NCBI GenBank assembly: GCA_029247585.1
Contig: JAQWKY010000044.1
Location: forward strand, 5,010-69,009
DNA from: Flavobacteriales bacterium
GTDB lineage: Bacteria; Bacteroidota; Bacteroidia; Flavobacteriales; UBA7430
Reading direction: 5' to 3'
Length of the DNA stretch: 64,000 nt
In this document: one piece after another, positions 7,426-63,161 of the stretch
Numbering within the stretch: the first letter of the stretch is position 1
How the letters are laid out: each line of letters opens with the position of its first letter
Program-made: the position numbers and the translations under genes
The notes under the pieces: model-generated
What the model was told of the DNA's origin: nothing
The model's input: only the letters and a program-made list of their open reading frames with translations
Databases searched by the model: none

Positions 7426-8706
7426 TTAAAAATTGGCTTCAAATTTATTTTGAATTTCCTTCAAACAAAGATTGCCTATACTACCTTCATGAGAATGAAT
7501 TACTTTTTTATCTGGATTAAAATCACCCGCAAAAATTTCAGTCCCCAATTTCTTATAAGCATCTCGGAAAGTCATACCACTCATAACGAGCTTGTTAACC
7601 TCCTCAACACTATACATGTAGTCATAAATGGCGTCGTCAACAGCGTCTTGATTTACGATAACGTGCTGCAACATAAAGCTTGTGACCTCCAAATTGTCCT
7701 TTAAGATATCTATAGCTTCCATGTAGTTTTCTTTCAGCAATTGAAAATCTCTGTGGTATCCGCTGGTCAGATTATTGGTAATCATAATCATCTCTGTGGG
7801 TAAGTTTTGAACCTTATTACTCTTCGCTCGTAACAGTTCAAACACATCCGGATTTTGCTTGTGAGGCATGATGCTTGAACCTGTGGTAAGTTCTTTAGGG
7901 AAACCTAAAAAATTAAAGTTCTGACTCATGTACAAGCAAACGTCTGATGCTAACTTGGATAAAGTACTGGATACAGATGCCATGGCAAAAGCAGTTGTTT
8001 TCTCCAAGCGACCTCTACTCATCTGTGCAGCAACAACATTGTACTTTAGCGTTTCAAACCCCATAAGCTCAGTGGTCATCGTTCTGTTAATCGGAAAAGA
8101 AGAACCGTATCCTGCGGCAGAGCCTAGAGGGTTTTGATTACTGATTTTATAGGCTGCGTTTAACAGAATGAGATCGTCGATTAAACATTCTGCATAAGAT
8201 GCGAACCAAAGCCCAAAAGAAGAAGGCATCGCTACCTGAAGGTGAGTGTACCCTGGGATTAATACATCTTTGTATGTATCACTTAGTTCCATCAATGTAT
8301 CAAAGAGTTTTTTGACACCTTCTTTCATTTCAAGGATTTCTGCTTTCGTATACAAATGCAGATCCACCAAGACTTGATCATTTCGTGATCTTGCCGTGTG
8401 AATTTTTTTACCCGCATCTCCTATTTTCTGAACCAGTTCGAACTCAATTTTACTGTGGACATCCTCAAAAGAATCCTCGATAATAAAGGTTCCATCGTCA
8501 ATGGTCTTCTGAATTTCTGACAAACCTTTTAAAACAGCGTCCAACTCATCTTTTGAGAGAATATTGATACTATGAAGCATTTTGGCATGAGCCACACTAC
8601 CGGTAACATCGTGTTTGGCTAATTTTAAATCCAGTATGCGATCTTTACCAGTCGTATACTTGTCAACGATATTATTTGTAGTGTATCCTTTGTCCCAAAG
8701 TTTCAT
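7426..8706 (-). CDS. argH: Argininosuccinate lyase
   Basis: 426 aa. Fumarate-lyase signature GSSIMPHKQNP. Last gene of the arg operon. Confidence 0.9.
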   Translation of the reverse strand: MKLWDKGYTTNNIVDKYTTGKDRILDLKLAKHDVTGSVAHAKMLHSINILSKDELDAVLKGLSEIQKTIDDGTFIIEDSFEDVHSKIEFELVQKIGDAGKKIHTARSRNDQVLVDLHLYTKAEILEMKEGVKKLFDTLMELSDTYKDVLIPGYTHLQVAMPSSFGLWFASYAECLIDDLILLNAAYKISNQNPLGSAAGYGSSFPINRTMTTELMGFETLKYNVVAAQMSRGRLEKTTAFAMASVSSTLSKLASDVCLYMSQNFNFLGFPKELTTGSSIMPHKQNPDVFELLRAKSNKVQNLPTEMIMITNNLTSGYHRDFQLLKENYMEAIDILKDNLEVTSFMLQHVIVNQDAVDDAIYDYMYSVEEVNKLVMSGMTFRDAYKKLGTEIFAGDFNPDKKVIHSHEGSIGNLCLKEIQNKFEANF

Positions 8707-8717
8707 AGCTGCTGATT

Positions 8718-9774
8718 TTATAAAATTTTACTTAACATCTCTTTATACAGTCGAATGCCTTCTTCGATTTCGCTGACACAAACGTACTCATTAGAACTGT
8801 GTGATCGCAAGGATACACCAGGACCTAATTTTACAGAATTACAGCTTAACACAGACTGGTCCGATAGTGTAGGTGAACCGTAGGTCTTTCTACCCATATC
8901 TATTCCAGCCAGAACAAATGCATGGCCTTTATCTATGGATGAAGAATTCAACTTAAATGATCGAGGCTTCAGTTCACTCTTGGTATTCTCGGAGATGATA
9001 TCAAAAACTTCTCTATTGCTGTAAGCTTCGTTCACTCGAATATCTATCACAAAATGACATTCTGCAGGAACCAAGTTATGCAATTCTCCCGCCTTGATTT
9101 GTGTCACACTCATTTTCACCTTACCGAGTTGATCTGACACCTTAGAAAACTTGTAATTGTTAATCCACTCGATATCTTGAATGGCATTCATAATGGCATT
9201 TTTCTGTGTTTTCATGAGCTGCATGACCAGCAATACCTTTGGCATATGCATCGATGACCAACAATCCTTTTTCAGCGATGGCTAAATGCATTTCTGTAGG
9301 CTCTCCAACAATGGCAAAATCGATTTCTGGAAGTATTCCAAGAATACTATTTAGACCGTTTGGTCCAGAACTTTCTTCTTCTGCCGTAGCGGCAACAGCC
9401 AAATTGTATTTCATATTTTTTTGTTCGTAAAAATGAACAAAGGTCGAAAGTAAGCTTACTAAACATCCTCCAGCATCGTTACTACCCAATCCATACAACT
9501 TGTCACCTTCTATAAAAGCATCATAGGGATCATTGGTGTAGCCCTTATTTGGTCTAACCGTATCGTGATGAGAGTTCAATAAGATAGTTGGCTTATTTTC
9601 ATCAAAGTATTTATTGACAGCCCAAACGTTATTCTGAGTTCTATTGAAGGTAACTCCATGGTCTTTCAACCAGCCCTCAATAATAGCAGCAGTGTTGTGT
9701 TCTTCGCTAGAAAATGATTGTGTTTGAATCAATTTTTGAAGCAATTCAACAGCTATTTGGTATTGTTCTTTCAT
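8718..9774 (-). pseudogene. argE: ArgE/DapE-type M20 deacylase (acetyl/succinyl-ornithine or -citrulline deacylase) split by a 1-nt frameshift
   Basis: The N-terminal 204-aa ORF (9160-9774) and C-terminal 177-aa ORF (8718-9251) overlap and are colinear with one M20 enzyme. The frames join at ..GHAAHENTE|NAIMNAIQDIEW.. if one A is removed from the GAAAAAT run (plus-strand T5, 9199-9203). Confidence 0.75.
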
Positions 9775-11496: not shown

Positions 11497-12656
11497 TTTA
11501 ATACTTTTTTTAAAGCCTGAACAAATGGCGTAATTTCTTCAATGGTAATGTTTAATGGTGGTAATATACGAAGCAAGTTTGGATTTGCTGAGCCTCCGGT
11601 GAAAATTTGAAAATCATATAATAATTTTGATCGTAATTCTTTTACAGGATAATCAAACTCTACACCGAGCATTAAGCCTCTACCTTTAATTTCCTTAATG
11701 CTTGTTATGGTTTTAAGCTCACTGATTAAAAAATCGCTTACATGCGCTACATTTTCAATCAGAGATTCTTTTTTGAGTGTGTCTAAAACAGCAATACCTG
11801 CAGCACAAGCCAAGTGATTACCGCCAAACGTTGTTCCAAGCATACCAGGAGTTGCATTGATGTGTGGAGCAATCAACACCCCTCCAATAGGGAAACCATT
11901 ACCCATTCCTTTTGCCATACATATGATATCTGCGGAAACATTCGCATGCTGATGAGCAAAAAAGCGACCTGTTCGCCCATAACCACTTTGCACTTCGTCT
12001 AGGATAAGTAAAGCTTCATGTTCTTTACAAGCTTGAGATACAAAACTCAAAAAGTCGTCTGAGGGAGCATCAAGCCCACCAACACCTTGAATTCCTTCTA
12101 CAATAACCGCACAAACGTCTTTATTCTTTAAAGCTTCTGCAAGGGCTGCTTCATCGTTTAACTCAAGGAATACTACATCAAAATTATTTTTATTGATGGG
12201 TGCCGAAAGACGAGAGTTATCTGTTACGTTAAGCGCTGCCGCTGTACGTCCATGAAAACTTCCTTTAAAAGCAATTACCTTAGTTTTACCCGTATGAAAA
12301 GAGGCTAATTTTAATCCATTTTCATTCGCTTCAGCCCCACTGTTACAAAAAAACAATTGATGATCTGTATAGCCACTTAACGCAGTAAGTTTTTCAGCAA
12401 ACTCCTCTTGAATAGGCATCATTACAGAGTTGGAGTAAAAACCAATTTGTTTCAATTGATGGCTTATTTGAGCGATGTACTCAGGATGAGAATGTCCAAT
12501 AGATATCACCCCATGTCCGCCATACAAGTCTAAATATTTTTTTTCATTTTGATCAAAAACATAGACACCCTCAGCTCTGGCAGGTGTAACATCAAATCTT
12601 GGATAAACGTCGAACAATCCACTTTCTTGCTTTTTTAGTCCGCTTAATGTTGTCAT
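11493..12656 (-). CDS. argD: Acetyl/succinyl-ornithine aminotransferase (class III PLP)
   Basis: 387 aa. LILDEVQSGYGRTG and the PLP-lysine context ICMAKGMGNG. Confidence 0.9.
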   Translation of the reverse strand: MTTLSGLKKQESGLFDVYPRFDVTPARAEGVYVFDQNEKKYLDLYGGHGVISIGHSHPEYIAQISHQLKQIGFYSNSVMMPIQEEFAEKLTALSGYTDHQLFFCNSGAEANENGLKLASFHTGKTKVIAFKGSFHGRTAAALNVTDNSRLSAPINKNNFDVVFLELNDEAALAEALKNKDVCAVIVEGIQGVGGLDAPSDDFLSFVSQACKEHEALLILDEVQSGYGRTGRFFAHQHANVSADIICMAKGMGNGFPIGGVLIAPHINATPGMLGTTFGGNHLACAAGIAVLDTLKKESLIENVAHVSDFLISELKTITSIKEIKGRGLMLGVEFDYPVKELRSKLLYDFQIFTGGSANPNLLRILPPLNITIEEITPFVQALKKVLK

Positions 12657-52179: not shown

Positions 52180-52995
52180 TTAATCGTTTAAAATACTATC
52201 CAATCTCGCTTTTAAACTATCTTGTCTCATCAACTCTAATGTATCTATAATTAAATGAGAACTATCTTCTGTAAACCATAAATTTACGAATGCACCTAAA
52301 TCTAATCCTCTCGTTTCCGGTTCGGGCTCTTGTTTAAACACAAATGCATTAGGGGTATCTACAACAGAAATGTCGTAGTAAAACTCACCTTTATTCAGAG
52401 ATAAATTCTGCAACCTCACATTCATATTTTTTTTCAAATCACCAATGAAATTTGGCATTTCTATTTGTCTACCCTGACCGTTTCCAAGAACCAAATCAAG
52501 CTTTGTTGACTTCTCTAATTTCTGATCAATTTCGACAATTGAATCTTGATAAAGAACACCTAAAACAACGTTCGCATGTTCATCATCCTCGTAAACAAAG
52601 GTCCCTATTCGGAATCCTTTGGCTTTCAAAACAGACATGTACTGACGTAGGGAACGATCTGTGTAATCAGGCAAAGCAATCAAACTGACGTTTTTGGGAT
52701 TTACCGTTAAATACAATTCTCTGTCTTGTTTCACTCTAGATCCAGCTTTTGGTAATTGATCAATTACAGAACCTCTAGGATAATCAGCATTATAAGCCCC
52801 TGAATCTACGACTGAGAAACGCAGTTGAAGGCTTGAAAGTGTATCTTCAACTTCATAAATGGAAAAACTTCGAATATCAGGAACAAGAATAGACTCGCCA
52901 TGCATCGTCATTTTCTCTAAAGCACGGAGGGATCCATACACTAGTGCCATCATAACAAAAACACCTAAACACAGGTGGACGATAATTCGTTTCAT
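52180..52995 (-). CDS. PASTA-domain protein with an N-terminal membrane anchor
   Basis: 271 aa. One TM segment followed by repeated ~65-aa PASTA-like units. Confidence 0.65.
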   Translation of the reverse strand: MKRIIVHLCLGVFVMMALVYGSLRALEKMTMHGESILVPDIRSFSIYEVEDTLSSLQLRFSVVDSGAYNADYPRGSVIDQLPKAGSRVKQDRELYLTVNPKNVSLIALPDYTDRSLRQYMSVLKAKGFRIGTFVYEDDEHANVVLGVLYQDSIVEIDQKLEKSTKLDLVLGNGQGRQIEMPNFIGDLKKNMNVRLQNLSLNKGEFYYDISVVDTPNAFVFKQEPEPETRGLDLGAFVNLWFTEDSSHLIIDTLELMRQDSLKARLDSILND

Positions 52996-53016
52996 AATAT
53001 GATTTTATATCGGTAA

Positions 53017-53072
53017 AGATAGGAAACAGTTGGCAGTTGGCAGTTGACAGTTGGTAATTTTCAATTGACAGT
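53017..53072. repeat. Heptanucleotide tandem array, 8 units, consensus [AGT]CA[GA]TTG
   Basis: ACAGTTG GCAGTTG GCAGTTG ACAGTTG GTAATTT TCAATTG ACAGTTA TCAATTG, in strict 7-nt phase, within the divergent PASTA/ridA spacer. Confidence 0.85.
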
Positions 53073-53140
53073 TATCAATTGTCGGTAAGACGGACTTTCA
53101 TATCTTCGCAATTCAATAAAAACAAATCTAAACAATAAAT

Positions 53141-53518
53141 ATGAAGACTATTGTAGAAACTTCTCAGGCTCCTGCACCCATAGGACCGTATTCTCAAGCT
53201 GTACTTTCAGGAAATACATTGTACACCTCAGGTCAAATTGCTATTAACCCGGAAACCGGGGACTTAGTAATGAGTTCCATAGAAGAAGAAACCCATCAGG
53301 TGATGAATAATGTAAAGGCTGTATTAGCTGAGGCAGGAATGACCTTCGACCACGTAATTAAATCGTCCATTTTCATTTCTGATATGGATAATTTTGGTCG
53401 AATCAATGAAGTCTATGGTCAATATTTTACGGCTGATTTTCCTGCCAGAGAAACCGTTGAAGTAGCTCGATTACCAAAAGATGTAAATGTGGAAATTTCA
53501 ATGATCGCAGTGAAGTAG
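53141..53518 (+). CDS. ridA: RidA (YjgF/TdcF) family reactive-intermediate deaminase
   Basis: 125 aa. ..APIGPYSQAV..GNTLYTSGQI.. and ..PARETVEVARLPKDV.VEI. Confidence 0.85.
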   Translation: MKTIVETSQAPAPIGPYSQAVLSGNTLYTSGQIAINPETGDLVMSSIEEETHQVMNNVKAVLAEAGMTFDHVIKSSIFISDMDNFGRINEVYGQYFTADFPARETVEVARLPKDVNVEISMIAVK

Positions 53519-53552
53519 TTAAAAATTAAAGACTGAAAGTTAAAGATTAAAA
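53518..53552. repeat. Heptanucleotide tandem array, 5 units (GTTAAAA/ATTAAAG family)
   Basis: GTTAAAA ATTAAAG ACTGAAA GTTAAAG ATTAAAA, starting at the last base of the ridA stop codon. Confidence 0.75.
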
Positions 53553-53605
53553 TTTCTCTTGATCTTCCGTACCAAAAAGCTTTCAACTCTCAGATTAAAC
53601 GAAGA

Positions 53606-53632
53606 TAAAAAGCGCTCCCTCCGGGAGCGTTT
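53606..53632 (-). terminator. Rho-independent terminator downstream of the M61 peptidase gene
   Basis: Minus strand: ACGCTCCC-GGA-GGGAGCGC followed by T5. A second perfect 10-bp inverted repeat (CCTTCCTAAA..TTTAGGAAGG, 53635-53669) lies next to it. Confidence 0.6.
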
Positions 53633-53711
53633 CCCCTTCCTAAAGGTTTTAACCCAAGGTTTAGGAAGGTGTTCGTTGGAGTAAAACCCGAGGTTAAGAA
53701 AGGGTTTATGA

Positions 53712-55421
53712 TCAACCCAACCATTTCTCAAACAACACTTTCTGCCGATCGGATGTTTTTTTCATAGGTACAACCTTGTATTTTGGATAATACCTTATTG
53801 CACTTAAGGGCACTTCAACATCAATCGTTTCAAAACGTCTTTTCAATTTTAACTTTACACGATCTTTTGTCATGAAAGACTCTAAAAGTTCTTTCGTTAT
53901 TTGCTGTTCATCTATCGCAATAATAACATCGCCCTCGGCAATTTTAACCTTGTCAGCAACAGCATCTGACCGCACTTGTTTTACATGGAATTCACTCTGC
54001 TGACGCAGTGCCTTTAAGCCCAGTCGCGAAGCAAAAAAGTCTCTATTTTCCTGTTCTTCGATCTGTAAACCAACAATGGATAAAACTACGTCCAAAGAAG
54101 CCCGGAAATCTTTTGTTCCGTAAATATGATCCTCTACTACATGGAGAGCCTTGACCCCTCCATAGGCCATAAGCTCATGGATGTAATCTTCTTCTGTTAA
54201 GCCTTTTCCTTTGCAGGCGTATTCTTTGTAAAGACGGGTCATCACATCTCGAAGTGAATATTGACCGGTACTTTTATTAAGTATGCAAATATCGAGCATC
54301 AGCGCACACAAAGCGCCCTCGGTGTAAATGGAAACTTTACGATTCGGAATTCCCATCTCATAACCATCCAACCAGGTATCAAATCCGGAATCGGCAACAG
54401 ACATGTTGTGACGTCCTCCATTGTGGAAATGTTTTAAAAGATTTTCTTCCTGCGTGCTAAAAAACGCCTCATTAGAAAAAACATTCGAGCGTTTCAAATA
54501 CAGATCACCCATGTATGTCGTAACACCCTCATACAAATAACCCATACGCGAATAATTCTCTTTGGAATAATCGTAAGGCAAAAGGGTTTTCGGACGAATT
54601 TGTTTTACATTCCACGTATGATACAGTTCATGTGAAGAAACTCCTAACAGAGATCTGTAAAGTTTCTCTCCCATCAATTCTTCTCCAGGTCCCAAAGAAA
54701 TAACCGTACTTGCCGTATGCTCCACTCCGTGATAGGTTTTGTAAGGCAAGATCTGATTGATAAAATGATATTCCGAAACCGGAAAAGCTGTAAAGTCTTT
54801 GATCTGCTCGATTGTAAATGCCTTGAAATCTTTTAAGATCCGATCCCAATCGGGTTGACATTCTCCTTGAAACCATACGTGAAATTCTATGCCTTCAACT
54901 TCGTAGCTTTTATGTTGAAGTGAATTGGAAGCGATCCAGGGACTTTCGGCAAGCTCATCAAAATTATTAGCTTTTAGCTGATGTCCGTTTTGCTCCAGTG
55001 AACAGGCAATTTTGTAATTGCCCGGAATATCCAGATCAACCACACAAGACTCTTCCATTCGGTTTGGAACATACAAACAACAATTCACCGGATTTACATA
55101 CAACTGACACTCATCCAAATAAGTAGACCCTGCATTAAGTTCATTCGCATAATAGTTGTACGCAATAATGATCTCTGAAATGTTTGGTGTTGAAACCTTC
55201 CAGGTATCTTTGGTGATTTTCTCAAACTTCAATGGATTCCCGTCAGCATCAGAAACTTTGAAATATTGAATGTTCTTGGCAAAGTTTTCAAGCTCATATC
55301 TCCCGGGTCTCCAGGCTGGTAATTGTAAGATAAGTTCAGCTGAATCATGCTCACATATTCGCATTTCTAGGTCAATAAAATGACGATGCGGATGGGTGTA
55401 TGAGAATTTGTATTGGAACAT
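53712..55421 (-). CDS. M61-family (glycyl aminopeptidase-like) metallopeptidase with a C-terminal PDZ domain
   Basis: 569 aa. HELYHTWN zinc motif. PDZ-like ..IAEGDVIIAIDEQ.. near the C-terminus. Confidence 0.8.
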   Translation of the reverse strand: MFQYKFSYTHPHRHFIDLEMRICEHDSAELILQLPAWRPGRYELENFAKNIQYFKVSDADGNPLKFEKITKDTWKVSTPNISEIIIAYNYYANELNAGSTYLDECQLYVNPVNCCLYVPNRMEESCVVDLDIPGNYKIACSLEQNGHQLKANNFDELAESPWIASNSLQHKSYEVEGIEFHVWFQGECQPDWDRILKDFKAFTIEQIKDFTAFPVSEYHFINQILPYKTYHGVEHTASTVISLGPGEELMGEKLYRSLLGVSSHELYHTWNVKQIRPKTLLPYDYSKENYSRMGYLYEGVTTYMGDLYLKRSNVFSNEAFFSTQEENLLKHFHNGGRHNMSVADSGFDTWLDGYEMGIPNRKVSIYTEGALCALMLDICILNKSTGQYSLRDVMTRLYKEYACKGKGLTEEDYIHELMAYGGVKALHVVEDHIYGTKDFRASLDVVLSIVGLQIEEQENRDFFASRLGLKALRQQSEFHVKQVRSDAVADKVKIAEGDVIIAIDEQQITKELLESFMTKDRVKLKLKRRFETIDVEVPLSAIRYYPKYKVVPMKKTSDRQKVLFEKWLG

Positions 55422-55423
55422 TA

Positions 55424-55451
55424 ATTAAAAGTTGAAAGTTAAAAATTAAAA
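55424..55451. repeat. Heptanucleotide tandem array, 4 units (ATTAAAA/GTTGAAA family)
   Basis: ATTAAAA GTTGAAA GTTAAAA ATTAAAA, 2 nt upstream of the M61 start codon. Confidence 0.75.
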
Positions 55452-55460
55452 GTTTGGTTT

Positions 55461-55525
55461 TCAGCAATCAGCTCTCAGCTCTCAGAAAAAAACTGAGAAC
55501 TGCAAACTGAGAACTGCAAACTGTT
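55461..55525. repeat. Two adjacent heptamer arrays: TCAGCTC-type x4 and AACTG[AC][GA] x5
   Basis: TCAGCAA TCAGCTC TCAGCTC TCAGAAA, then AACTGAG AACTGCA AACTGAG AACTGCA AACTGTT. TCTCAG-A7-CTGAGA at the junction can pair. The array ends inside the MBL gene's stop codon. Confidence 0.8.
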
Positions 55526-56366
55526 AAACGAATCTTTCCTCAAACTGAAAAGTTTCATCCAAACGAACTCCTTTTTCAGTGTGCTTTACGGTACAACAGG
55601 ATTGATAATAATCATGTTCTAAAAACAAGGTGTGTCCTTTTTCCGCAGCCGTTTCAAGGAATATCTTTTTCTCTTGTAAGGTCACAAGCGGACGGGTATC
55701 ATAGCCCATCACATAAGGCAAAGGAATATGTCCTGCCGATGGCAACAAATCGGCTGCAAAAACAACCGTTTTCCCCTGATATTCAATATGAGGGATCATT
55801 TGAGACTCCGTATGTCCATCGGCAAAAAGCACATCAAATCCCGGCAAGAATATTCCGTCCGTTTTAATAAAATCCAATTGACCACATGCTTTCATAGGCT
55901 CTAAATTCTCTTTTAAAAACGATGCCTTTTCTCTGTCATTAGGATTCATCGCAGCGTTCCAATGTGCCTCATTAGACCAATAGGTCGCATTTTTAAAGAC
56001 AGGAACAAGATCCCCTTTTTCATCATATTTAACACCTCCACCACAGTGGTCGAAATGTAAATGCGTTAAAAAAACATCCGTAATATCATCCGGATGATAA
56101 CCATTTTTGGCTAAAGATGTGATAAGTGTATCGTCTCCATGCAAGTAATAATGACTAAAAAACTTTTCGCTTTGTTTATCTCCCAAGCCATTATCGATTA
56201 AGACTTTTCTGTCACCATAATCGACCAACATACTTAGCATAGCCCACGGACAAAGATTGTTCTCATCTGCTGGATTCGTTCTTTGCCATAAACTTTTAGG
56301 TACTACGCCAAACATAGCTCCCCCATCCAATTTAAAATTCCCCGTTTCTATGGATATTATTTTCAT
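55524..56366 (-). CDS. MBL-fold metallo-hydrolase
   Basis: 280 aa. THLHFDHCGG motif. Confidence 0.8.
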   Translation of the reverse strand: MKIISIETGNFKLDGGAMFGVVPKSLWQRTNPADENNLCPWAMLSMLVDYGDRKVLIDNGLGDKQSEKFFSHYYLHGDDTLITSLAKNGYHPDDITDVFLTHLHFDHCGGGVKYDEKGDLVPVFKNATYWSNEAHWNAAMNPNDREKASFLKENLEPMKACGQLDFIKTDGIFLPGFDVLFADGHTESQMIPHIEYQGKTVVFAADLLPSAGHIPLPYVMGYDTRPLVTLQEKKIFLETAAEKGHTLFLEHDYYQSCCTVKHTEKGVRLDETFQFEERFV

Positions 56367-56390
56367 GATTGTCTTATTTGTCTTGAAAAA

Positions 56391-56432
56391 ATTGAAAGTT
56401 CAAGATTGAAAGTTAAAGATTAAAAGTTAGAA
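56391..56432. repeat. Heptanucleotide tandem array, 6 units (ATTGAAA/GTTAAAG family)
   Basis: ATTGAAA GTTCAAG ATTGAAA GTTAAAG ATTAAAA GTTAGAA. Confidence 0.75.
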
Positions 56433-56442
56433 TACATACGAA

Positions 56443-56512
56443 TGGATAATGGATAATGGACAATGGATAATGGATAATGGACAATGGATAATGGACAATG
56501 GATAATGGACAA
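56443..56512. repeat. Heptanucleotide tandem array, 10 units of TGGA[TC]AA
   Basis: Ten perfect-phase units alternating TGGATAA and TGGACAA. They translate as the artefactual PLSIVHY repeat of ORF 56420-56800. Confidence 0.9.
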
Positions 56513-56573
56513 TTGATGCTTGTCGAAGCATGTCACTCTGAGCCTACCCCCAAAAACACTCTTACAAACAATA

Positions 56574-56608
56574 CCTTGCACCTTGTACTTTGTACTTTGT
56601 ACTTCATA
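56574..56608. repeat. Heptanucleotide tandem array, 5 units of C[CT]TTGTA
   Basis: CCTTGCA CCTTGTA CTTTGTA CTTTGTA CTTCATA, ~40 nt upstream of the transporter start. Confidence 0.75.
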
Positions 56609-56648
56609 CGAATTCACTATCTTCGAACTTTTGCAATAATTTAGATTT

Positions 56649-58898
56649 ATGTCTGATACGCTTTTAAAACAAAAGGCCAATTTTGGTACAGCACCGGTAT
56701 TTATGACGGCAATCTCCACGATTTTGGGGGCCATCTTGTACTTACGTTTTGGATATGCTGTAGCCCATACAGGATTTATGGGTGCTATCGCCATCATCAT
56801 TATTGGTCATTTAGTGACAATTCCTACAGCTATGGCGGTTGCAGAGATTGCAACGAACCGAAAGGTGCAGGGTGGTGGTGCTTACTACATCATTTCGAGG
56901 TCTTTTGGGTTGAATATTGGAGCAGCCATTGGCATCGCTCTTTTTCTTTCTCAAGCCATTTCTGTGGCCTTTTATGTAATTGCCTTTGCCGAGGCTTTTA
57001 TGCCTTTTTCAGAATTTCTCGTTGATTCTTATCCATTTTTGGTAGACTACAGTGCTTATTTATTAGACAAAAAACTCATCGGAATTATCATGATGATATT
57101 CCTGAGTATTCTGATGCTTACCAAAGGTGCTAATATTGGAATGAACCTACTCTACTATGTGGTAGCCATTCTTTTTGCATCGCTGATCATGTTCTTTATG
57201 GGGAAACCTATTGAAGGCCACGATTTGACAAATGTAGATCTGATCTCTTCCATCTCAAATCCGGACTCATTCTTTTATGTCTTCACCATTATCTTCCCCG
57301 CTTTTACCGGTATTGCAGCGGGATTGGGTTTATCCGGTGACTTAAAAGACCCTAAAAGATCGATTCCTAAAGGAACACTGTTGGCAACAGCAGTAGGAAT
57401 TGTCGTGTACGTAGCCGTTGCATTAAAACTGGTACTATCAGCTTCTTTAGACGATCTGGCAGCAGACCAGCTTATTATGAGTCGTATTGCCATCTGGGGG
57501 CCTATTATCCCTATTGGTTTGGCTTGTGCTGCAATTTCTTCTGCTTTAGGATCTGTAATGGTAGCACCACGTACACTGCAAGCTTTAGGGGTAGATAAAA
57601 TATTCCCTACACTAACCCTAAACAACTGGCTGTCAAAAAATAAAAAAAACACCATTGAACCAATAAATGCCTCATTAATCTCTTGCATCATCGCCTTTTT
57701 CTTTGTGGTTATCGGAGACATAAATTTGGTAGCTGAAGTGATCGCCATGTTCTTTATGGTGACTTATGGAGCCATTTGTTCCATCTCTCTTTTAGAGCAT
57801 TTCTCCGCCGATCCTTCTTACAGGCCTACATTTCGATCGCGTTGGTACATTTCGCTACTCGGAGCCGTACTTTCATTTTGGTTAATGTTCAAAATGAATA
57901 CCACTTACGCTTTGGCTTCCTTGATCTTTATGGCTATCATTTACATTTACATCAGTAAATACAACACTTCCAGCGGAGGGATCATCAAATTATTTAAAGG
58001 CGTTCTGTTCCAACTAAGCAGACAACTTCAAATCTTTGTACGTAAAAAAGAATACAACAGTGCCGATGACCATTGGCGTCCTTTTGCCATTTGTGTTTCT
58101 GATGTAACCCTCCAGAAAAGAGATGCCTTCGACTTTATGCGTTGGATCTCCCACAAATACGGATTCGGCACACACATGCACTTTATTGAGGGTTACCTGA
58201 ATAAAGAATCTCATCTTAAATCTCAAAAAACCCTATCTAAACTACACAGTCTTGCCGAAGGTTCCAAGTCAAAAGTTTATCTCGACACGATAATTAGCCC
58301 TTCATACACATCGGCCATCGCACAAGTCATTCAACTTGCCAGTATTTCCGGAAAGGGACACAACCTTATCGTTTTAGAATTTGAGAGAGGAAACAAAGAA
58401 AAGTTAGAGCAGATCATCAAAAATCATCACCTGTTAACGGCTACAGACCTCGATGTTTGTATTCTTAGCAGTACTTACAGATCCTTTGGTTACAACAAAG
58501 ACATTCATATTTGGATCTCTACTGATGATTATCAGGATTCCAATCTGGAAATTCTTTTAGGTTACATCTTACTCGGACATAAAAACTGGAAAGATGCCAG
58601 CATAAAAATATTCTCAATTTACGCAGAAGGTACTATCGAAAAGGAAAAAGAACGCCTGTTAAACCTCATACAAGAAGGTCAGTTACCTATCTCTCCTTCC
58701 AACATAAATCTCATTGAAAAAAACAAAGCTCACGAGATCAAATCTATCATTAACGAGCAATCGGCAACAGCTGATTTCACTTTGATAGGTTTCGATGAGA
58801 AGATTTTAGAAAGGGATGGAACAGCGTATTTTGAAGGGTACGACAAACTCGGAAATATTCTTTTTGTGAACTCTATGAACAAAAAAGAAATTAATTAA
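56649..58898 (+). CDS. APC-superfamily transporter of the cation-chloride-cotransporter (SLC12)-like type with a large cytoplasmic C-terminal domain
   Basis: 749 aa. About 12 TM segments in the first ~480 aa, then a ~270-aa soluble domain. Confidence 0.65.
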
Positions 58899-58921: not shown

Positions 58922-59650
58922 TTGAAACAGACCGTTAAGCCCTACAAAAATTCGTCCTTATCCAAGAAGGAACAAGTTGCCGAAATGTTTGACAACATTG
59001 CCGGAAACTACGACTTCCTGAATCATTTCCTTTCCATGGGAATTGATATCTATTGGCGTAAACGATTGGTAAAACGCTTAATAAAACAAGCTCCTAAGCA
59101 AATTTTAGATGTGGCTACAGGAACGGGAGATCTTGCCATTGCCATGTTAAAAGCAAATCCGGATAAAATTGTCGGTATTGATATTTCGAACGGAATGCTT
59201 GAAGTAGGACGTAAGAAAATGAAGGAAAAAGGACTGGAAGACAAAATTACACTTCAACAAGCCGATTCTGAAAATTTACCTTTCGAAGACAATAGTTTTG
59301 ATGCAGTGAGTGTAAGTTTTGGAGCTCGTAACTTCGAAAACCTCGAAAAAGGACTATCGGAAATGTGTAGAGTATTGCGCCCGGGAGGAAAATTGTACAT
59401 CCTGGAATTTTCACAGCCCACTGTATTTCCTTTTAAACAACTTTACCAGTTCTACTTTAGATACATTTTACCTTTGGTAGGGAAAATCGTTTCTAAGGAC
59501 AATGCCGCTTACACCTATCTTCCCGAATCTGTTGGTGCTTTTCCTTACGGAAAAAAATTAAACAAGATCATAGAGAACTGTGGGTACAATAAGGCCAAAG
59601 ATCACTCGTTAACAATGGGTATTGCTTCCATTTACATCGCTGAAAAATGA
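58922..59650 (+). CDS. ubiE: Demethylmenaquinone methyltransferase (UbiE/MenG)
   Basis: 242 aa. ..[21 protein letters not shown].. and SAM motif [14 protein letters not shown] start. Confidence 0.85.
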
Positions 59651-60345
59651 AAAAACTAGGGCTACTATCCTTATTGGTCATCTTTAGCTTGTCTGCTTTT
59701 GCTCAAAAGCAAAAGATTATTGCTTTAAGCAACTATGATTATAAAAAGATCCATTTTGGAATGGCTTTAGATTTTGGTCAATACAATCTGATCAATGATT
59801 TTAACGATAGTTTCTATCAGAACAATGACATTCTAAGTATTGAAACGGATAGTGACGTTGGAATAGGCGTTTCTTTCATCTTACCAGACCTCAGAATAAA
59901 CGATCGATTGAACCTTAGACATGTTCTTACGGTAAAAACCATACAACGAAAAATTAACTATCGTTTTAGCCCTGACTTTGATGGTCCATTAAATGAAACG
60001 AAAAGTGTTGAATCTTGGTTTGTAGAATCTGGATTTCACCTTAAATACAGAGCTGATCGAATTAACAACTACAGAGCTTTTCTATTTTTTGGTCCGAATA
60101 TTGGAATTGATATGGCCTCTGAAAAAGACGTAAAAGACGAAGAAATATTTAAACTTAACCGAAACAATATTGCTCTAGAAATCGGTGCCGGTTGTGATTT
60201 CTATTTTGAATATTTCAAATTCGCTCCTCAAATAAAATACTCTCATGGATTGACAAACCTCATTGTAGATGACGGCACTATTTTCACAAGTCCTCTAGAT
60301 GGTTTCTATTCCAGAGGTTTTCAGATATCCTTTACATTTGAATAA
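59647..60345 (+). CDS. PorT/SprT-like outer-membrane beta-barrel protein (T9SS-associated family, tentative)
   Basis: 232 aa. Signal peptide, beta-strand periodicity, terminal ..ISFTFE. My recollection of ubiE-porT synteny in Flavobacteriia supports the name, but it is unverified here. Confidence 0.55.
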
Positions 60346-61896
<1,551 letters not shown>

Positions 61897-62378
61897 TTGA
61901 TAATTATCAATTGTCAATTAATAGTTCAAACCTTCCCTTATCAGAACGCTGCGCTGAAGCAATCAAGAATAATTATTAATTGACGATTGTCATCCTGATA
62001 AATTGATAATTAAATCGGATTTAATTACGAATTTTCATTACACCACATTTTACAAACCTAAAAGAAAATCAATGGGAATAATCCCATCTAGGGGTCAATT
62101 CATTTTTAAATTCAATTGTCCATTATCAATTGTCCATTATCAATTGTCAATTAATAGTTCAAACCTTCCCTTATCAGAACGCTGCGCCGAAGCAATCAAG
62201 AATAATTATTAATTGATAATTGACGATTGTCATCCTGATAAATTCATAATTAAATCCGATTTAATTACGAATTTTCATTACACCACTTTTACAGACCTAA
62301 AAGAAAATCAATGGGAATAATCCCATCTAGGGGTCAATTCATTTTTAAATTCAATTGTCCATTATCAATTATCAATTA

Positions 62379-63161
62379 TCAATTGTCAATTAATAGTTCA
62401 AACCTTCCCTTATCGGAGTTCCATTTTCCAAAAGGAGAGTTGAGCATTTCATTCATTTTTCCACCCTTTTTAAGGGCTTCTGTTTCCAAAATATGAAATT
62501 GAGAGCTTTTATCGATCCAAAAAACACGATCAGCTATTTGGAGTGCGGTTGCCCAATCGTGGGTACTCATAATAATAGATTTACCCTCTTCCCTGCTGAA
62601 TTTCTTCAAGAGAACAGACAACTCCATCGTGTGAGCCAGGTCCAAAAAAGCGGTAGGTTCATCCAACAATAAAACATCTGTTTGCTGAGCCAAAGCTCTC
62701 GCTAAGATGACTCGTTGTCGCTCACCATCACTTAGATCAGACATCCAACGATCAGCATACTCCAAAGCACCAACTTTAGATAGACTCGTTTCAATAATGG
62801 CCTCGTCTTCCTGCTTCAATTTTCCTTTCCACGATAAATACGGATAACGACCTGTTGCTACTACATCTTTCGCTTTCATAGCTACATCGCGAAGCGAATC
62901 AGTTAGAACCACCGCCATTTCTTTTGCTTTTTCTTCTGCCGAAAAATTTGCTAAAGCTTTCCCTTTCAATAGGATCTCACCTGAAAGATCAGGCAATATT
63001 CCCATCAGGGTTTTCAATAAAGTCGATTTCCCCTTCCCATTGGCTCCGAGCAAACAAATGAGTTCTCCGGAATACAACTCAAAGGAAATATCTTTCAGTA
63101 CCGACTGACCGTCATAACCTACGGAAACCTCTTTTAGTGTTATGTACTTCTCCTTACCCAA
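62379..63161 (-). CDS. ABC transporter ATP-binding protein (FecE/BtuD/HmuV-type iron-chelate or cobalamin importer)
   Basis: 260 aa. Walker A GANGKGKST, signature LSDGERQR, Walker B LLLDEPT. The last 11 codons and the stop are encoded by the tandem repeat. Confidence 0.85.
   Translation of the reverse strand: MGKEKYITLKEVSVGYDGQSVLKDISFELYSGELICLLGANGKGKSTLLKTLMGILPDLSGEILLKGKALANFSAEEKAKEMAVVLTDSLRDVAMKAKDVVATGRYPYLSWKGKLKQEDEAIIETSLSKVGALEYADRWMSDLSDGERQRVILARALAQQTDVLLLDEPTAFLDLAHTMELSVLLKKFSREEGKSIIMSTHDWATALQIADRVFWIDKSSQFHILETEALKKGGKMNEMLNSPFGKWNSDKGRFELLIDN

Follow-up and report, generated by a model that had tools for sequence, protein, structure and literature searches.

Head-to-tail heptanucleotide repeats with strain-variable copy number in intergenic spacers of an uncultured marine Flavobacteriales bacterium

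Several intergenic spacers at one end of a 64-kb stretch of DNA from an uncultured marine Flavobacteriales bacterium (the window) appear to be built from short words repeated every 7 nt, which raises the question of what these tracts are, how they arose and whether they act on the genes around them. We find that the tracts are genuine, with 7-base words repeated head to tail in numbers that vary between strains, and that this kind of repeat is already known in bacteria, though little studied. Judging from allele comparisons, slippage during DNA copying is their most likely origin, and a role in phase variation is weakly supported.

Period-7 arrays at one end of the window

The window was searched with Tandem Repeats Finder (TRF) and our own lag-match scans, using Markov-2 simulations as the null. 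Both methods bear out the heptanucleotide arrays that a first-pass annotation had reported in the spacers from 53.0 kb on, and 7 and 14 are the sole tandem periodicities present. At a strict threshold, 4 arrays of period 7 and 5 to 6 of period 14 were obtained, compared to an expectation of approximately 0.03 per period, and all other periods from 3 to 15 gave zero arrays in the 64 kb. At a looser threshold, there were 8 arrays for each of the two periods versus approximately 0.7 expected. All strong arrays, and 15 of the 16 detected at the looser threshold, lie to the right of 52.9 kb. There, arrays occur in all 5 spacers of at least 60 nt, whereas none of the 23 such spacers further left has one (Fisher p = 1e-5), so that the proposed regional clustering is real within the window. 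The arrays and associated features are as follows (strand is given where one applies):

53026–53081: array A, 8 units (ACAGTTG GCAGTTG GCAGTTG ACAGTTG GTAATTT TCAATTG ACAGTTA TCAATTG), in the divergent PASTA/RidA spacer; TRF rows 53027–53054 and 53026–53081
53518–53552: array B, 5 degenerate units (GTTAAAA ATTAAAG ACTGAAA GTTAAAG ATTAAAA), from a unit-by-unit read-out
53613–53629, minus strand: G+C-rich terminator hairpin, CGCTCCCGGAGGGAGCG followed by a T run, serving M61; from the spacer fold
55425–55454: array C, approximately 4.3 units of TTAAAAG/TTGAAAG type; TRF row 55425–55454
55450–55522, minus strand: D/E hairpin between MBL and M61, from the RNA fold of that strand
55461–55485: array D, approximately 3.6 units (TCAGCAA TCAGCTC TCAGCTC TCAG); TRF row 55468–55485
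55491–55525: array E, 5 units (AACTGAG AACTGCA AACTGAG AACTGCA AACTGTT), overlapping the MBL stop codon (minus strand); TRF rows 55490–55523
56388–56429: array F, 6 units (AAAATTG AAAGTTC AAGATTG AAAGTTA AAGATTA AAAGTTA); TRF row 56387–56429
56443–56519: array G, 10 TGGAYAA units (56443–56512; Y is T T C T T C T C T C) and a degenerate eleventh, TTGATGC; TRF score 119
56570–56604: array H, 5 units of CYTTGYA type; TRF row 56572–56604
61889–62414: 239-bp tandem repeat, 2.2 copies, filling the convergent FAD/ABC spacer; TRF
61889–61923: array I, inside the 239-bp repeat
62112–62153: array J, inside the 239-bp repeat
62351–62392: array K, inside the 239-bp repeat, providing the last codons of the ABC ATPase

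Every TRF period-7 row between 53 and 56.6 kb has 0% indels, showing that the register is strict inside each array. The earlier claim of a strict 7-nt register holds to that extent; a common register across arrays of different words is not definable, and a stretch of 4 kb holds at least six unrelated words. The coordinates and unit counts given previously are mostly correct, except that the start of array A at 53017 was approximately 9 nt early and the TCAGCTC array (D) has approximately 3.6 units, not 4. The pattern [AGT]CA[GA]TTG fits 6 of the 8 units of array A.

As had been noticed, arrays lie at or near start and stop codons: B on the RidA stop, C 3 nt from the M61 start codon (minus strand) and E on the MBL stop. 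The first base of array B is the third base of the RidA stop codon, so that the array lies within the RidA 3′ UTR, upstream of the terminator hairpin at 53613–53629, which is one of the non-array portions of this 193-nt convergent spacer. Both divergent spacers, PASTA/RidA and MBL/permease, match their earlier description. In the latter, array F is 22 to 63 nt upstream of the MBL start codon and array H 45 to 79 nt upstream of the permease start codon. Array G, the purest and most polymorphic of the arrays, occupies the middle.

Most arrays fold more weakly than shuffled controls. In the sense transcript of the M61/MBL spacer, the mutually complementary arrays D and E surround a U7 loop and are followed by a U-rich tract. 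The minus-strand fold has an energy of −34.5 kcal/mol (z = −5.1, with 0 of 200 shuffles as good), and the antisense strand of the region has z = −2.7. The predicted hairpin looks like a putative terminator or attenuator.

Allele series among strains and related species

All allele evidence comes from between-sample comparison of short-read assemblies, the comparison set being independent conspecific metagenome contigs (97% to 99.9% identity). Copy number does differ among these strains, as the first-pass annotation had anticipated, in array G and in length alleles of the M61/MBL and FAD/ABC spacers. Array G has 9 units in one contig (L088), 10 in the window and three others (L001, L084 and L085), at least 16.5 in L002, where the contig ends inside the array and cuts the allele off, and 18 in L226. 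The window array matches the final 10 of the 18 units in L226, so that one 56-nt event separates the two, and the T/C pattern of the units points to block duplications of 14 and 21 nt. These alleles show that arrays lengthen and shorten by entire 7-nt units, singly or 2, 3 or 8 at a time. Variability tracks purity: among 7 sequences, the pure array G shows 4 alleles, whereas a single length was seen for each degenerate array (B, F and H) across 6 to 13 sequences (B in 12 of 12 conspecific contigs covering its site, H in 6 conspecific sequences). On this comparison, the longer and purer an array, the more it varies between strains.

Other observations fit slippage less well. The length of array F is equal in L226 and the sister species (L003), with substitutions only, and the array is absent from L228; an exact length in two species could reflect constraint, which counts against the arrays being mere products of slippage. 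The PASTA/RidA spacer is 129 nt in L083 and L226, a diverged, shorter allele, versus 145 or 146 nt, a difference that is not a multiple of 7. The M61/MBL spacer is either 28 or 102 nt, and no intermediates were seen among the conspecific contigs, suggesting that the 102-nt allele may have come in by recombination. Array C and the D/E hairpin are restricted to the 102-nt allele. The complementarity of D and E on the sense strand uses G-U pairs, and selection on RNA structure would give the same pattern.

The FAD/ABC spacer forms a series of 152 nt (L232), 250 nt (L226) and 482 nt (window), with 1, 1.2 or 2.2 copies of the 239-bp unit; in L228 the two genes overlap, leaving zero spacer. The repeat includes second copies of the 3′ end of each gene, and arrays I, J and K share the words TCAATTG/TCCATTA/TCAATTA. 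The simplest allele is a unit of approximately 180 nt with TTAA on each side and inverted arms of 27 to 29 nt made of heptamer words (L232). Between the arms is a 131-nt non-repeat core, which slippage alone cannot create. In addition, the MBL gene, which has array spacers on both sides, is 91% to 97% identical between conspecific contigs, versus 98% to 99.6% for its flanks. The suggestion that arrays coincide with recombination and duplication junctions is thus borne out by the copies of the 239-bp unit and by the MBL mosaic, and the arrays, in this comparison, delimit larger duplications and recombination mosaics. A 19-mer, TGAAAGTTAAAGATTAAAA, is common to arrays B, F and C (identical at 53534 and 56407, one mismatch at 55433; 0 expected by chance), showing that pieces of array have also spread by copying from one spacer to another nearby.

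In the sister species L003 (M61 protein 88% identical), the same spacers contain proto-arrays of 2 to 4 units; array A has approximately 3 units there and array B is mostly missing. Two more distant relatives, L228 and L231 (75% to 86% nucleotide identity), have no arrays in 21 kb each, and their orthologous spacers measure 20 nt (the site of array B), 27 nt and 156 nt, plus one gene overlap, versus 193, 102, 282 and 482 nt in the window. No period-7 excess was found in 1.3 Mb of other Flavobacteriales loci. Four consecutive TGGAYAA units occur in at least 120 metagenome contigs, which hold 107 separate period-7 arrays, 46 of period 14 and at most 25 of any other period; near-identical proteins place some of their hosts in Cytophagales, Saprospiraceae and Bacteroidaceae. 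A separate set of arrays, made of other words, is present in a distant Bacteroidia MAG (L044).

Heptamer repeats described in other bacteria

The likeness to the cyanobacterial STRR (short tandemly repeated repetitive) or LSSR heptanucleotide repeats that the first-pass annotation had pointed out is sound. STRR sequences, first described in Calothrix PCC 7601 and also present in Nostoc and Anabaena, are likewise 7-nt head-to-tail arrays, mostly intergenic, with several words per genome and strain-variable lengths. Unlike those, the present arrays are A+T-rich and belong to a non-photosynthetic host, and their words (CAGTTGG, AAAGTTR, TGGAYAA, CYTTGYA and others) are not the STRR words CCCCAGT, TTGGTCA and CAACAGT. 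The accompanying statement that no equivalent is described in Bacteroidota is wrong, since intergenic heptamer direct repeats of the TAACTGA system have been reported in Beggiatoaceae, Cyanobacteria and five Bacteroidetes (MacGregor 2015, PMC4679880). Those repeats also often adjoin start codons, and a role in gene rearrangement has been suggested for them (PMC4679880). In Gramella forsetii and Aequorivita sublithincola, spacers contain several different heptamer repeats that are missing in close relatives; as here, the relatives' spacers are shorter and repeat-free, and contigs of relatives end inside repeats (PMC4679880). In contrast to that system, TAACTGA itself is not arrayed in the window, where only words one base off occur, and there is no rule of forward orientation or of location just upstream of starts.

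More broadly, long simple sequence repeats (SSRs) of prokaryotes have units of 5 to 11 nt, with heptanucleotides the commonest (Mrazek 2007, as cited in PMC4679880 and PMC4692102). The arrays resemble these, and the GGGAATC/GGGGAYT repeats of Xanthomonas and Nostoc (Rehm 2015, PMC4692102), in that period 7 alone is over-represented, they are intergenic, length and sequence vary between close relatives, and inverted arrangements able to form stem-loops occur occasionally; polymerase slippage has been proposed as the origin there too. The Rehm repeats are G-rich and G-quadruplex-capable, whereas those of the window are A+T-rich and mostly fold worse than shuffled sequence. The model for the earlier idea that copy number tunes expression is Haemophilus influenzae hmw1A/hmw2A (PMC8262952, PMC12721329), where a 7-nt unit upstream of the genes varies in number between strains. 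In that case a single word lies in an adhesin 5′ region, and experiments have demonstrated graded expression and in-host selection; the window instead has many words beside genes of housekeeping type.

Origin of the arrays and alternative explanations

We think that the arrays are probably lineage-specific, STRR-like heptanucleotide simple repeats that gain and lose length through slippage or unequal exchange and amount to filler that is mostly tolerated. That they are an artefact of assembly or sequencing is a negligible prospect: short-read contigs often break inside arrays, so that some lengths may be wrong, but the arrays are base-for-base identical in independent ENA, JGI, NCBI and Logan assemblies from several projects, and interspersed T and C units make the tracts uniquely assemblable.

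It is unlikely that these are contingency loci, in which unit-number changes are selected since they retune flanking promoters or 5′ UTRs. The polymorphism among near-identical strains would suit such loci, as would the presence of arrays in both divergent spacers and immediately before the M61 and MBL start codons, the strong hairpin arising between co-oriented genes in the 102-nt allele, and the precedents of hmw1A/hmw2A (PMC8262952, PMC12721329) and of heptamer repeats that affect recF and recO in Nostoc (10.1101/2022.06.06.494920). However, the neighbours (RidA, an M61 peptidase, an MBL-fold hydrolase and an amino-acid permease) are housekeeping types rather than typical surface or restriction-modification genes, and related species manage without arrays. 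The arrays near start codons (F and H) or on the RidA stop (B) are invariant. Variable array G, between F and H, is separated from the MBL start by 77 nt and from the permease start by 136 nt, a position that probably puts it upstream of the core promoters of both genes. For the flanking genes, an exact match to the Bacteroidota −7 motif (TAnnTTTG) was found neither within the arrays nor adjoining them, and TGGAYAA arrays in 80 other contigs have no strand preference relative to neighbouring genes. That last observation, the unconstrained unit number, the variety of words and the end of conservation at the sister species also make it very unlikely that the arrays are multivalent sites for a DNA- or RNA-binding protein, comparable to the post-transcriptional regulator idea for TAACTGA repeats. 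Words one base off TAACTGA do occur (AAACTGA in array E; ATAACTG and CCAACTG on the reverse strand of array A), arrays adjoin start codons, TGGAYAA recurs in distant Bacteroidota, and its reverse complement TTATCCA matches the first 7 bases of the DnaA-box consensus; yet there is no GC-skew switch suggestive of a replication origin and no Rfam match.

Arrival by insertion and local copying, as ends or remnants of mobile or REP/MITE-like elements, rather than growth in place, seems quite unlikely. The 19-mer common to three spacers and the gain of non-repeat DNA (the 131-nt core and hairpins) would agree with it, as would the approximately 180-nt FAD/ABC unit with its inverted arms and TTAA borders, whose left arm the 3′ flank of array G resembles as read from sequence, and TGGAYAA tracts in several Bacteroidota orders, at times as inverted pairs. 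But the 131-nt core has no second copy in the window or any fetched locus, array G has no surrounding inverted repeats, no sequence is common to the flanks of TGGAYAA tracts from other contigs, and the 9-nt direct repeat flanking the G–H block is not significant because 19% of shuffles yield one. Growth in place is supported by the proto-arrays of the sister species at the same positions and by the short, array-free spacers of L228 and L231.

As slippage-prone simple repeats, the arrays would belong to the prokaryotic long SSR class and have arisen recently between the genes of a single uncultured marine Flavobacteriales species and of its sister species. Their engine would be slipped-strand mispairing at replication together with unequal or ectopic recombination; it has been suggested that the 7-nt step corresponds to the length of DNA that the polymerase holds (Mrazek 2007, as cited in PMC4679880 and PMC4692102), and the same behaviour is described in other lineages (PMC4679880, PMC4692102). 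Filler may be tolerated in A+T-rich, structure-free spacers of a phylum without Shine-Dalgarno sites, so that most arrays would be near-neutral. Effects on expression, via an altered distance between divergent genes or a new intercistronic hairpin between co-oriented ones, would then be by-products and not the reason for the arrays, with recombination junctions and assembly breaks as further side effects. To what is known of such repeats, these data add a strain-level allele series and copying between spacers, both of which go beyond MacGregor 2015.

Heptanucleotide arrays in the spacers right of 52.9 kb

Tandem Repeats Finder (TRF), run on the whole window, returned the period-7/14 arrays listed below, all with 0% indels and with contiguous units that have no spacers between copies.

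Period-7/14 arrays listed by TRF
53026-53081, array
55425-55454, array
55468-55485, array
55489-55523, array
56387-56429, array
56441-56517, array of 11 copies, score 119
56572-56604, array
61885-61920, array
62112-62153, array
62351-62392, array

According to lag-match scans, the window has no tandem periods other than 7 and 14. Under a strict threshold, for which Markov-2 simulations give an expectation of approximately 0.03 arrays per period, there are 4 arrays at period 7, 5 to 6 at period 14, and none at any other period from 3 to 15. A looser threshold yields 8 arrays each at periods 7 and 14 versus approximately 0.7 expected; of the 16, 15 are located right of 52.9 kb. The first-pass annotation had described the arrays as regional and, within the window, they are: among spacers of at least 60 nt, arrays are present in all 5 located right of 52.9 kb, compared to none of the 23 on the left (Fisher p = 1e-5), showing that the clustering is real. 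A read-out of the units confirmed the annotated words and unit counts, except that the first array begins at 53026 and not at 53017, and that TCAGCTC has approximately 3.6 units instead of 4. The same read-out agrees with the reported proximity to start and stop codons, given that the RidA stop codon is touched, the M61 start codon is 3 nt away and the MBL stop codon is overlapped. All arrays are intergenic and none lies inside a reading frame; only their edges reach a stop codon. The heptanucleotide arrays first noted in these spacers are real and were well described, and an artefact can for practical purposes be discounted.

The genes of the region, as assigned via Pfam, are the following.

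Genes flanking the arrays
52180-52995, minus strand, PASTA-domain protein
53141-53518, plus strand, RidA
53712-55421, minus strand, M61 peptidase
55524-56366, minus strand, MBL-fold hydrolase
56649-58898, plus strand, amino-acid permease
58922-61896, plus strand, UbiE methyltransferase, outer-membrane beta-barrel protein and FAD-dependent protein
62379-63161, minus strand, ABC ATPase

We refer to the arrays as A (PASTA/RidA spacer), B (3' side of RidA), C, D and E (M61/MBL), F, G and H (MBL/permease, with G being the TGGAYAA tract), and I, J and K, which lie inside a 239-bp tandem repeat in the convergent FAD/ABC spacer. Array K provides the final 4 codons of the ABC ATPase. The window has a G+C content of 37% and shows no switch in GC skew, which rules out an origin or terminus at the array region. 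A permissive Rfam search of 52.8-64 kb gave nothing above threshold and only a sub-threshold CRISPR-DR match inside the M61 gene; CRISPR is ruled out since the array units are contiguous, without a repeat-spacer layout. Outside array A, in the PASTA/RidA spacer, the window lacks one A at 53009/53010 (TTTTAT-ATCGG) that is present in nine conspecific contigs.

Length alleles, relatives and local copying

Contigs of the same species were found via exact-protein look-ups with MBL, RidA, M61 and PASTA, plus a FecCD relative; no match was obtained for the permease, for the FAD protein or for the ABC ATPase with either of two start choices. These metagenome contigs are independent and 97-99.9% identical to the window. 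The copy-number polymorphism for which a check had been proposed is present, most clearly in array G.

Alleles of array G
10 units: window and three contigs
9 units: L088
at least 16.5 units: L002, in which the contig end falls inside the array
18 units: L226, a 66.5-kb contig covering the whole region

In T/C unit notation, array G of L226 reads t'CTCTCTC-TTCTTCTCTC. The window array equals exactly its last ten units, and a single 56-nt event separates the two. The M61/MBL spacer has two alleles, one of 102 nt that contains arrays C, D and E and one of 28 nt (TTGGTTG TTAGTTG GTGGTTG ...), and in L083 and L226 the PASTA/RidA array is present as a diverged shorter allele. Arrays B, F and H, which are degenerate, each have one length across all contigs covering them. 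Among same-species contigs, variability is therefore greatest in the purest array while degenerate arrays are stable, as predicted by slippage.

The convergent FAD/ABC spacer is hypervariable, with 152 nt in L232 (3771-3922), 250 nt in L226 (887-1136) and 482 nt in the window (61889-62414), corresponding to 1, 1.2 and 2.2 copies of the 239-bp unit and a terminal array of 4 to 6 units. In this unit the 3' ends of both convergent genes are duplicated (the last approximately 40 nt of the FAD gene and approximately 27 nt of the ABC gene in the larger alleles), and the copies are delimited by arrays. The simplest allele is an approximately 180-nt unit at 3751-3932 of L232 (window approximately 62205-62400), which is MITE-like: its inverted arms of heptamer words (27-29 nt, 79-81% complementary) enclose a 17-nt hairpin at the centre, and TTAA is found at each side. 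A mobile origin of this unit is possible on these features; no second copy of the 131-nt core of the 239-bp unit was found in the window or the fetched loci. In L084, which ends 12 nt short of the 239-bp repeat, the gene for the FAD-dependent protein (8171-9703; window 60346-61877) is called as two ORFs, one of 275 aa and a cut one of 208 aa, reflecting either a frameshift or an assembly error, plus an assembly break at the repeat.

M61 protein matches in species-representative genomes come exclusively from uncultured marine Flavobacteriales, with labels including Cryomorphaceae and Salibacteraceae. The closest (L003, a sister species) is only 88% identical, so the window's own species is absent from the representatives. 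L003 has short versions of the arrays in the same spacers, including CAGTTGG x3, AGTTGAA AGTTCAA 3' of the RidA stop codon, and a 28-nt M61/MBL spacer with three NNNGTTG units; its array F is full length, and the contig stops exactly at the expected start of array G. Two further related species, represented by L228/L229 (approximately 78-86% nucleotide identity to the window) and L230/L231 (approximately 75-80%), keep the gene order, have short spacers and contain no period-7 arrays in 21 kb each.

Spacer lengths in the window and in L228
M61/RidA: window 193 nt, L228 20 nt
MBL/M61: window 102 nt, L228 27 nt
permease/MBL: window 282 nt, L228 156 nt
FAD/ABC: window 482 nt, L228 genes overlap (11755-11771)

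The comparison of orthologous spacers called for in the first-pass annotation hence separates species with and without arrays, and shows the arrays of the window to be young and grown in place. L230 and L231 (14746-14972) are also without the amino-acid permease gene (window 56649-58898), the MBL gene following directly after UbiE. In 1.3 Mb of M61-centred loci from other Flavobacteriales there is no period-7 excess. The exception among the M61-centred loci is L044, a distant Bacteroidia MAG of 42% G+C, which between 9669 and 18735 has at least 8 arrays of 7, 14 or 21 nt in neighbouring spacers around its M61 gene. Its words (GTAATAG, TCATTCA, AAGTAAT x10, TTACCTG and others) are unrelated to those of the window, and start and stop codons are abutted there too.

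Several arrays share sequence. The 19-mer TGAAAGTTAAAGATTAAAA occurs identically and on the same strand at 53534-53552 (array B) and 56407-56425 (array F), and with one mismatch at 55433-55451 (array C), again on the same strand, with a chance expectation of 0. B, C and F, 1.0-2.9 kb apart, are therefore copies of one another, and local copying of this kind between spacers would account for the clustering in one region. Arrays J and K match the end of array G (TAATGGACAATTGA) in reverse complement. Compared to the window, the MBL gene is 95.7% identical in L226, 97% in L088/L089 and 91% in L086, with flanks at 98-99.6%; the break in identity falls exactly at the M61/MBL spacer, and array spacers bound both sides of the gene. 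Judging from this identity profile, the MBL gene (55524-56366) is a recombination mosaic. A 9-nt direct repeat, CATACGAAT, at 56435-56443 and 56605-56613 brackets the G-H block in the manner of a target-site duplication; it is not significant as such, since some 9-nt direct repeat occurs in 19% of shuffled spacers. Inverted repeats around array G were not found. The convergent RidA/M61 spacer (53553-53711) contains a G+C-rich terminator hairpin and an imperfect palindrome (CCTTCCTAAA...TTTAGGAAGG). The corresponding spacer of L003 has a perfect 40-nt palindrome (2680-2730), and no dispersed family of the motif was found in the window.

Transcript structure, promoters and TGGAYAA tracts elsewhere

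Arrays B, C, F, G and H have practically no self-structure and fold worse than shuffled controls, which would suit A+T-rich leaders in a phylum without Shine-Dalgarno sites (PMC3155529). Arrays D and E are mutually complementary and are predicted to form a hairpin in the sense transcript between MBL and M61 (-34.5 kcal/mol, z = -5.1), with a U-rich tract after it; the antisense strand folds more weakly. As this hairpin is confined to the 102-nt allele, strains may differ in how tightly MBL and M61 are coupled. Array I also has a predicted A+T hairpin (z = -5.5).

No exact match to the Bacteroidota -7 motif TAnnTTTG precedes RidA, M61, MBL or the permease. A single copy lies 135 nt upstream of PASTA and would place array A in the PASTA leader. 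A sigma-70 promoter scan gave matches inside arrays, but this model is not applicable to Bacteroidota. Array G is located between F and H, at a distance of 77 nt from the start of MBL and 136 nt from that of the permease, so that changes in its length probably alter the distance between the two divergent promoters, not the spacing within either.

Metagenome contigs scanned for the exact pattern TGGAYAA x4 gave at least 120 stretches (L095-L214; 746 kb, G+C 32-64%). The matches listed hold 107 separate arrays at period 7 and 46 at period 14 versus at most 25 at any other period, and separate period-7 arrays are present in 54 of the 120 loci. A Pfam census was uninformative about the taxonomy of the array-bearing contigs; cluster names and a Shine-Dalgarno census were more useful. 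Proteins on four contigs among the matches listed fall into 90%-identity clusters named Leadbetterella (Cytophagales), Saprospiraceae, Bacteroidaceae (SusC) and, once, Peptococcaceae; the contigs listed span at least 3 further Bacteroidota orders. Contigs among the matches listed are poor in Shine-Dalgarno motifs and Flavobacteriales-like in this respect (0.24-0.32 versus 0.59 in E. coli and 0.22 in Flavobacteriales). Across 80 metagenome loci, the tracts show no strand or position bias relative to neighbouring genes, and no common flank was found among the matches listed. The 29 "coding" cases are probably spurious ORFs that arise from the lack of stop codons on the array's reverse strand. 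Inverted TTRTCCA tracts follow some TGGAYAA tracts (L099, L103, L107 and L137), and an 18-unit tract in L102 adjoins a GTCATTCTGAGCGAAGCGAAGAATC motif. Several of these contigs start or end within the tract, as do L002, L003 and L084 in the window region. The arrays therefore break short-read assemblies, and metagenome-assembled genomes will consequently under-report arrays and fragment there.

Interpretation and significance

The consensus words of cyanobacterial STRRs are CCCCAGT, TTGGTCA and CAACAGT; the window arrays have other words and a Flavobacteriales host, and thus differ from STRRs in the strict sense. They match the broader class of heptanucleotide long SSR/STRR-like repeats in their head-to-tail 7-nt units, with at least 3 copies and no spacers, their mainly intergenic position and their length differences between strains. 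Loci of that class are many and dispersed over the genome; the part covered here is the 64-kb window with overlapping same-species contigs, and within the window the arrays are clustered. As cited in PMC4679880 and PMC4692102, Mrazek 2007 found heptanucleotides to be the commonest long simple repeats in prokaryotes and suggested that 7 nt matches the length of DNA that the polymerase holds. Rehm 2015 (PMC4692102) noted that there was no detailed literature on heptameric repeats at that time, and that they vary in length and sequence between close Xanthomonas relatives. Intergenic TAACTGA repeats occur in Beggiatoaceae, Cyanobacteria and five Bacteroidetes (MacGregor 2015, PMC4679880). This word is not arrayed in the window, although array E contains its relatives AAACTGA and GAACTGC and the reverse strand of array A has a single ATAACTG; moreover, TAACTGA repeats stand in forward orientation a few nt upstream of a start codon, while the window arrays lie upstream, downstream and between divergent genes. 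Precedents for a function exist in the 7-bp repeats of H. influenzae hmw1A (PMC8262952, PMC12721329) and in the Nostoc heptamer repeats that lie upstream of recF and recO (10.1101/2022.06.06.494920). Our literature search on TGGAYAA tracts found nothing relevant. Compared to the searchable literature, the strain-level allele series, the evidence of array copying between neighbouring spacers and the finding of the same word, TGGAYAA, in several orders of Bacteroidota all appear to be new.

We consider the arrays to be, with reasonable probability, lineage-specific STRR-like heptanucleotide simple repeats, which would expand and contract in place, be copied locally into neighbouring spacers and persist mostly as tolerated filler with incidental structural or regulatory side effects. 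Selection as contingency loci seems unlikely, given that the flanking genes (PASTA, RidA, M61, MBL-fold, permease, FAD protein and ABC ATPase by Pfam) are not of the surface, host-interaction or restriction-modification types, and no link to such genes was found. An origin as remnants of small mobile elements is rather improbable: the inverted arms at the FAD/ABC core resemble those of MITE/REP-like elements, but the core has no second copy in the window or the fetched loci, array G is without inverted repeats and the direct repeat around the G-H block is not significant. That the arrays serve as arrays of binding sites is highly doubtful.

A bolder reading, to which we give little weight, is that heptamer arrays are a patchy, phylum-wide feature of Bacteroidota with partly shared words, such as TGGAYAA in Flavobacteriales, Cytophagales, Saprospiraceae and Bacteroidaceae, and that they spread between neighbouring spacers and are kept as tunable spacers or as hairpin-building modules, i.e., attenuators, terminators or recombination boundaries. 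If this is true, free-living environmental bacteria would in effect possess a contingency system, one that has mostly escaped notice since the arrays interrupt short-read assemblies.

The locus offers a natural experiment on the commonest long simple repeats of bacteria, whose origin and any role are almost uncharted. A species and its sister have the arrays, close relatives have the same genes without them, and strains that are 97-99.9% identical differ in whole units, in a 74-nt block giving rise to a predicted hairpin between two genes and in the copies of a 239-bp unit. It thereby becomes possible to ask what changed in the lineage, e.g., in replication or repair genes, whether unit number affects expression in a phylum without Shine-Dalgarno sites, and whether the arrays promote recombination.
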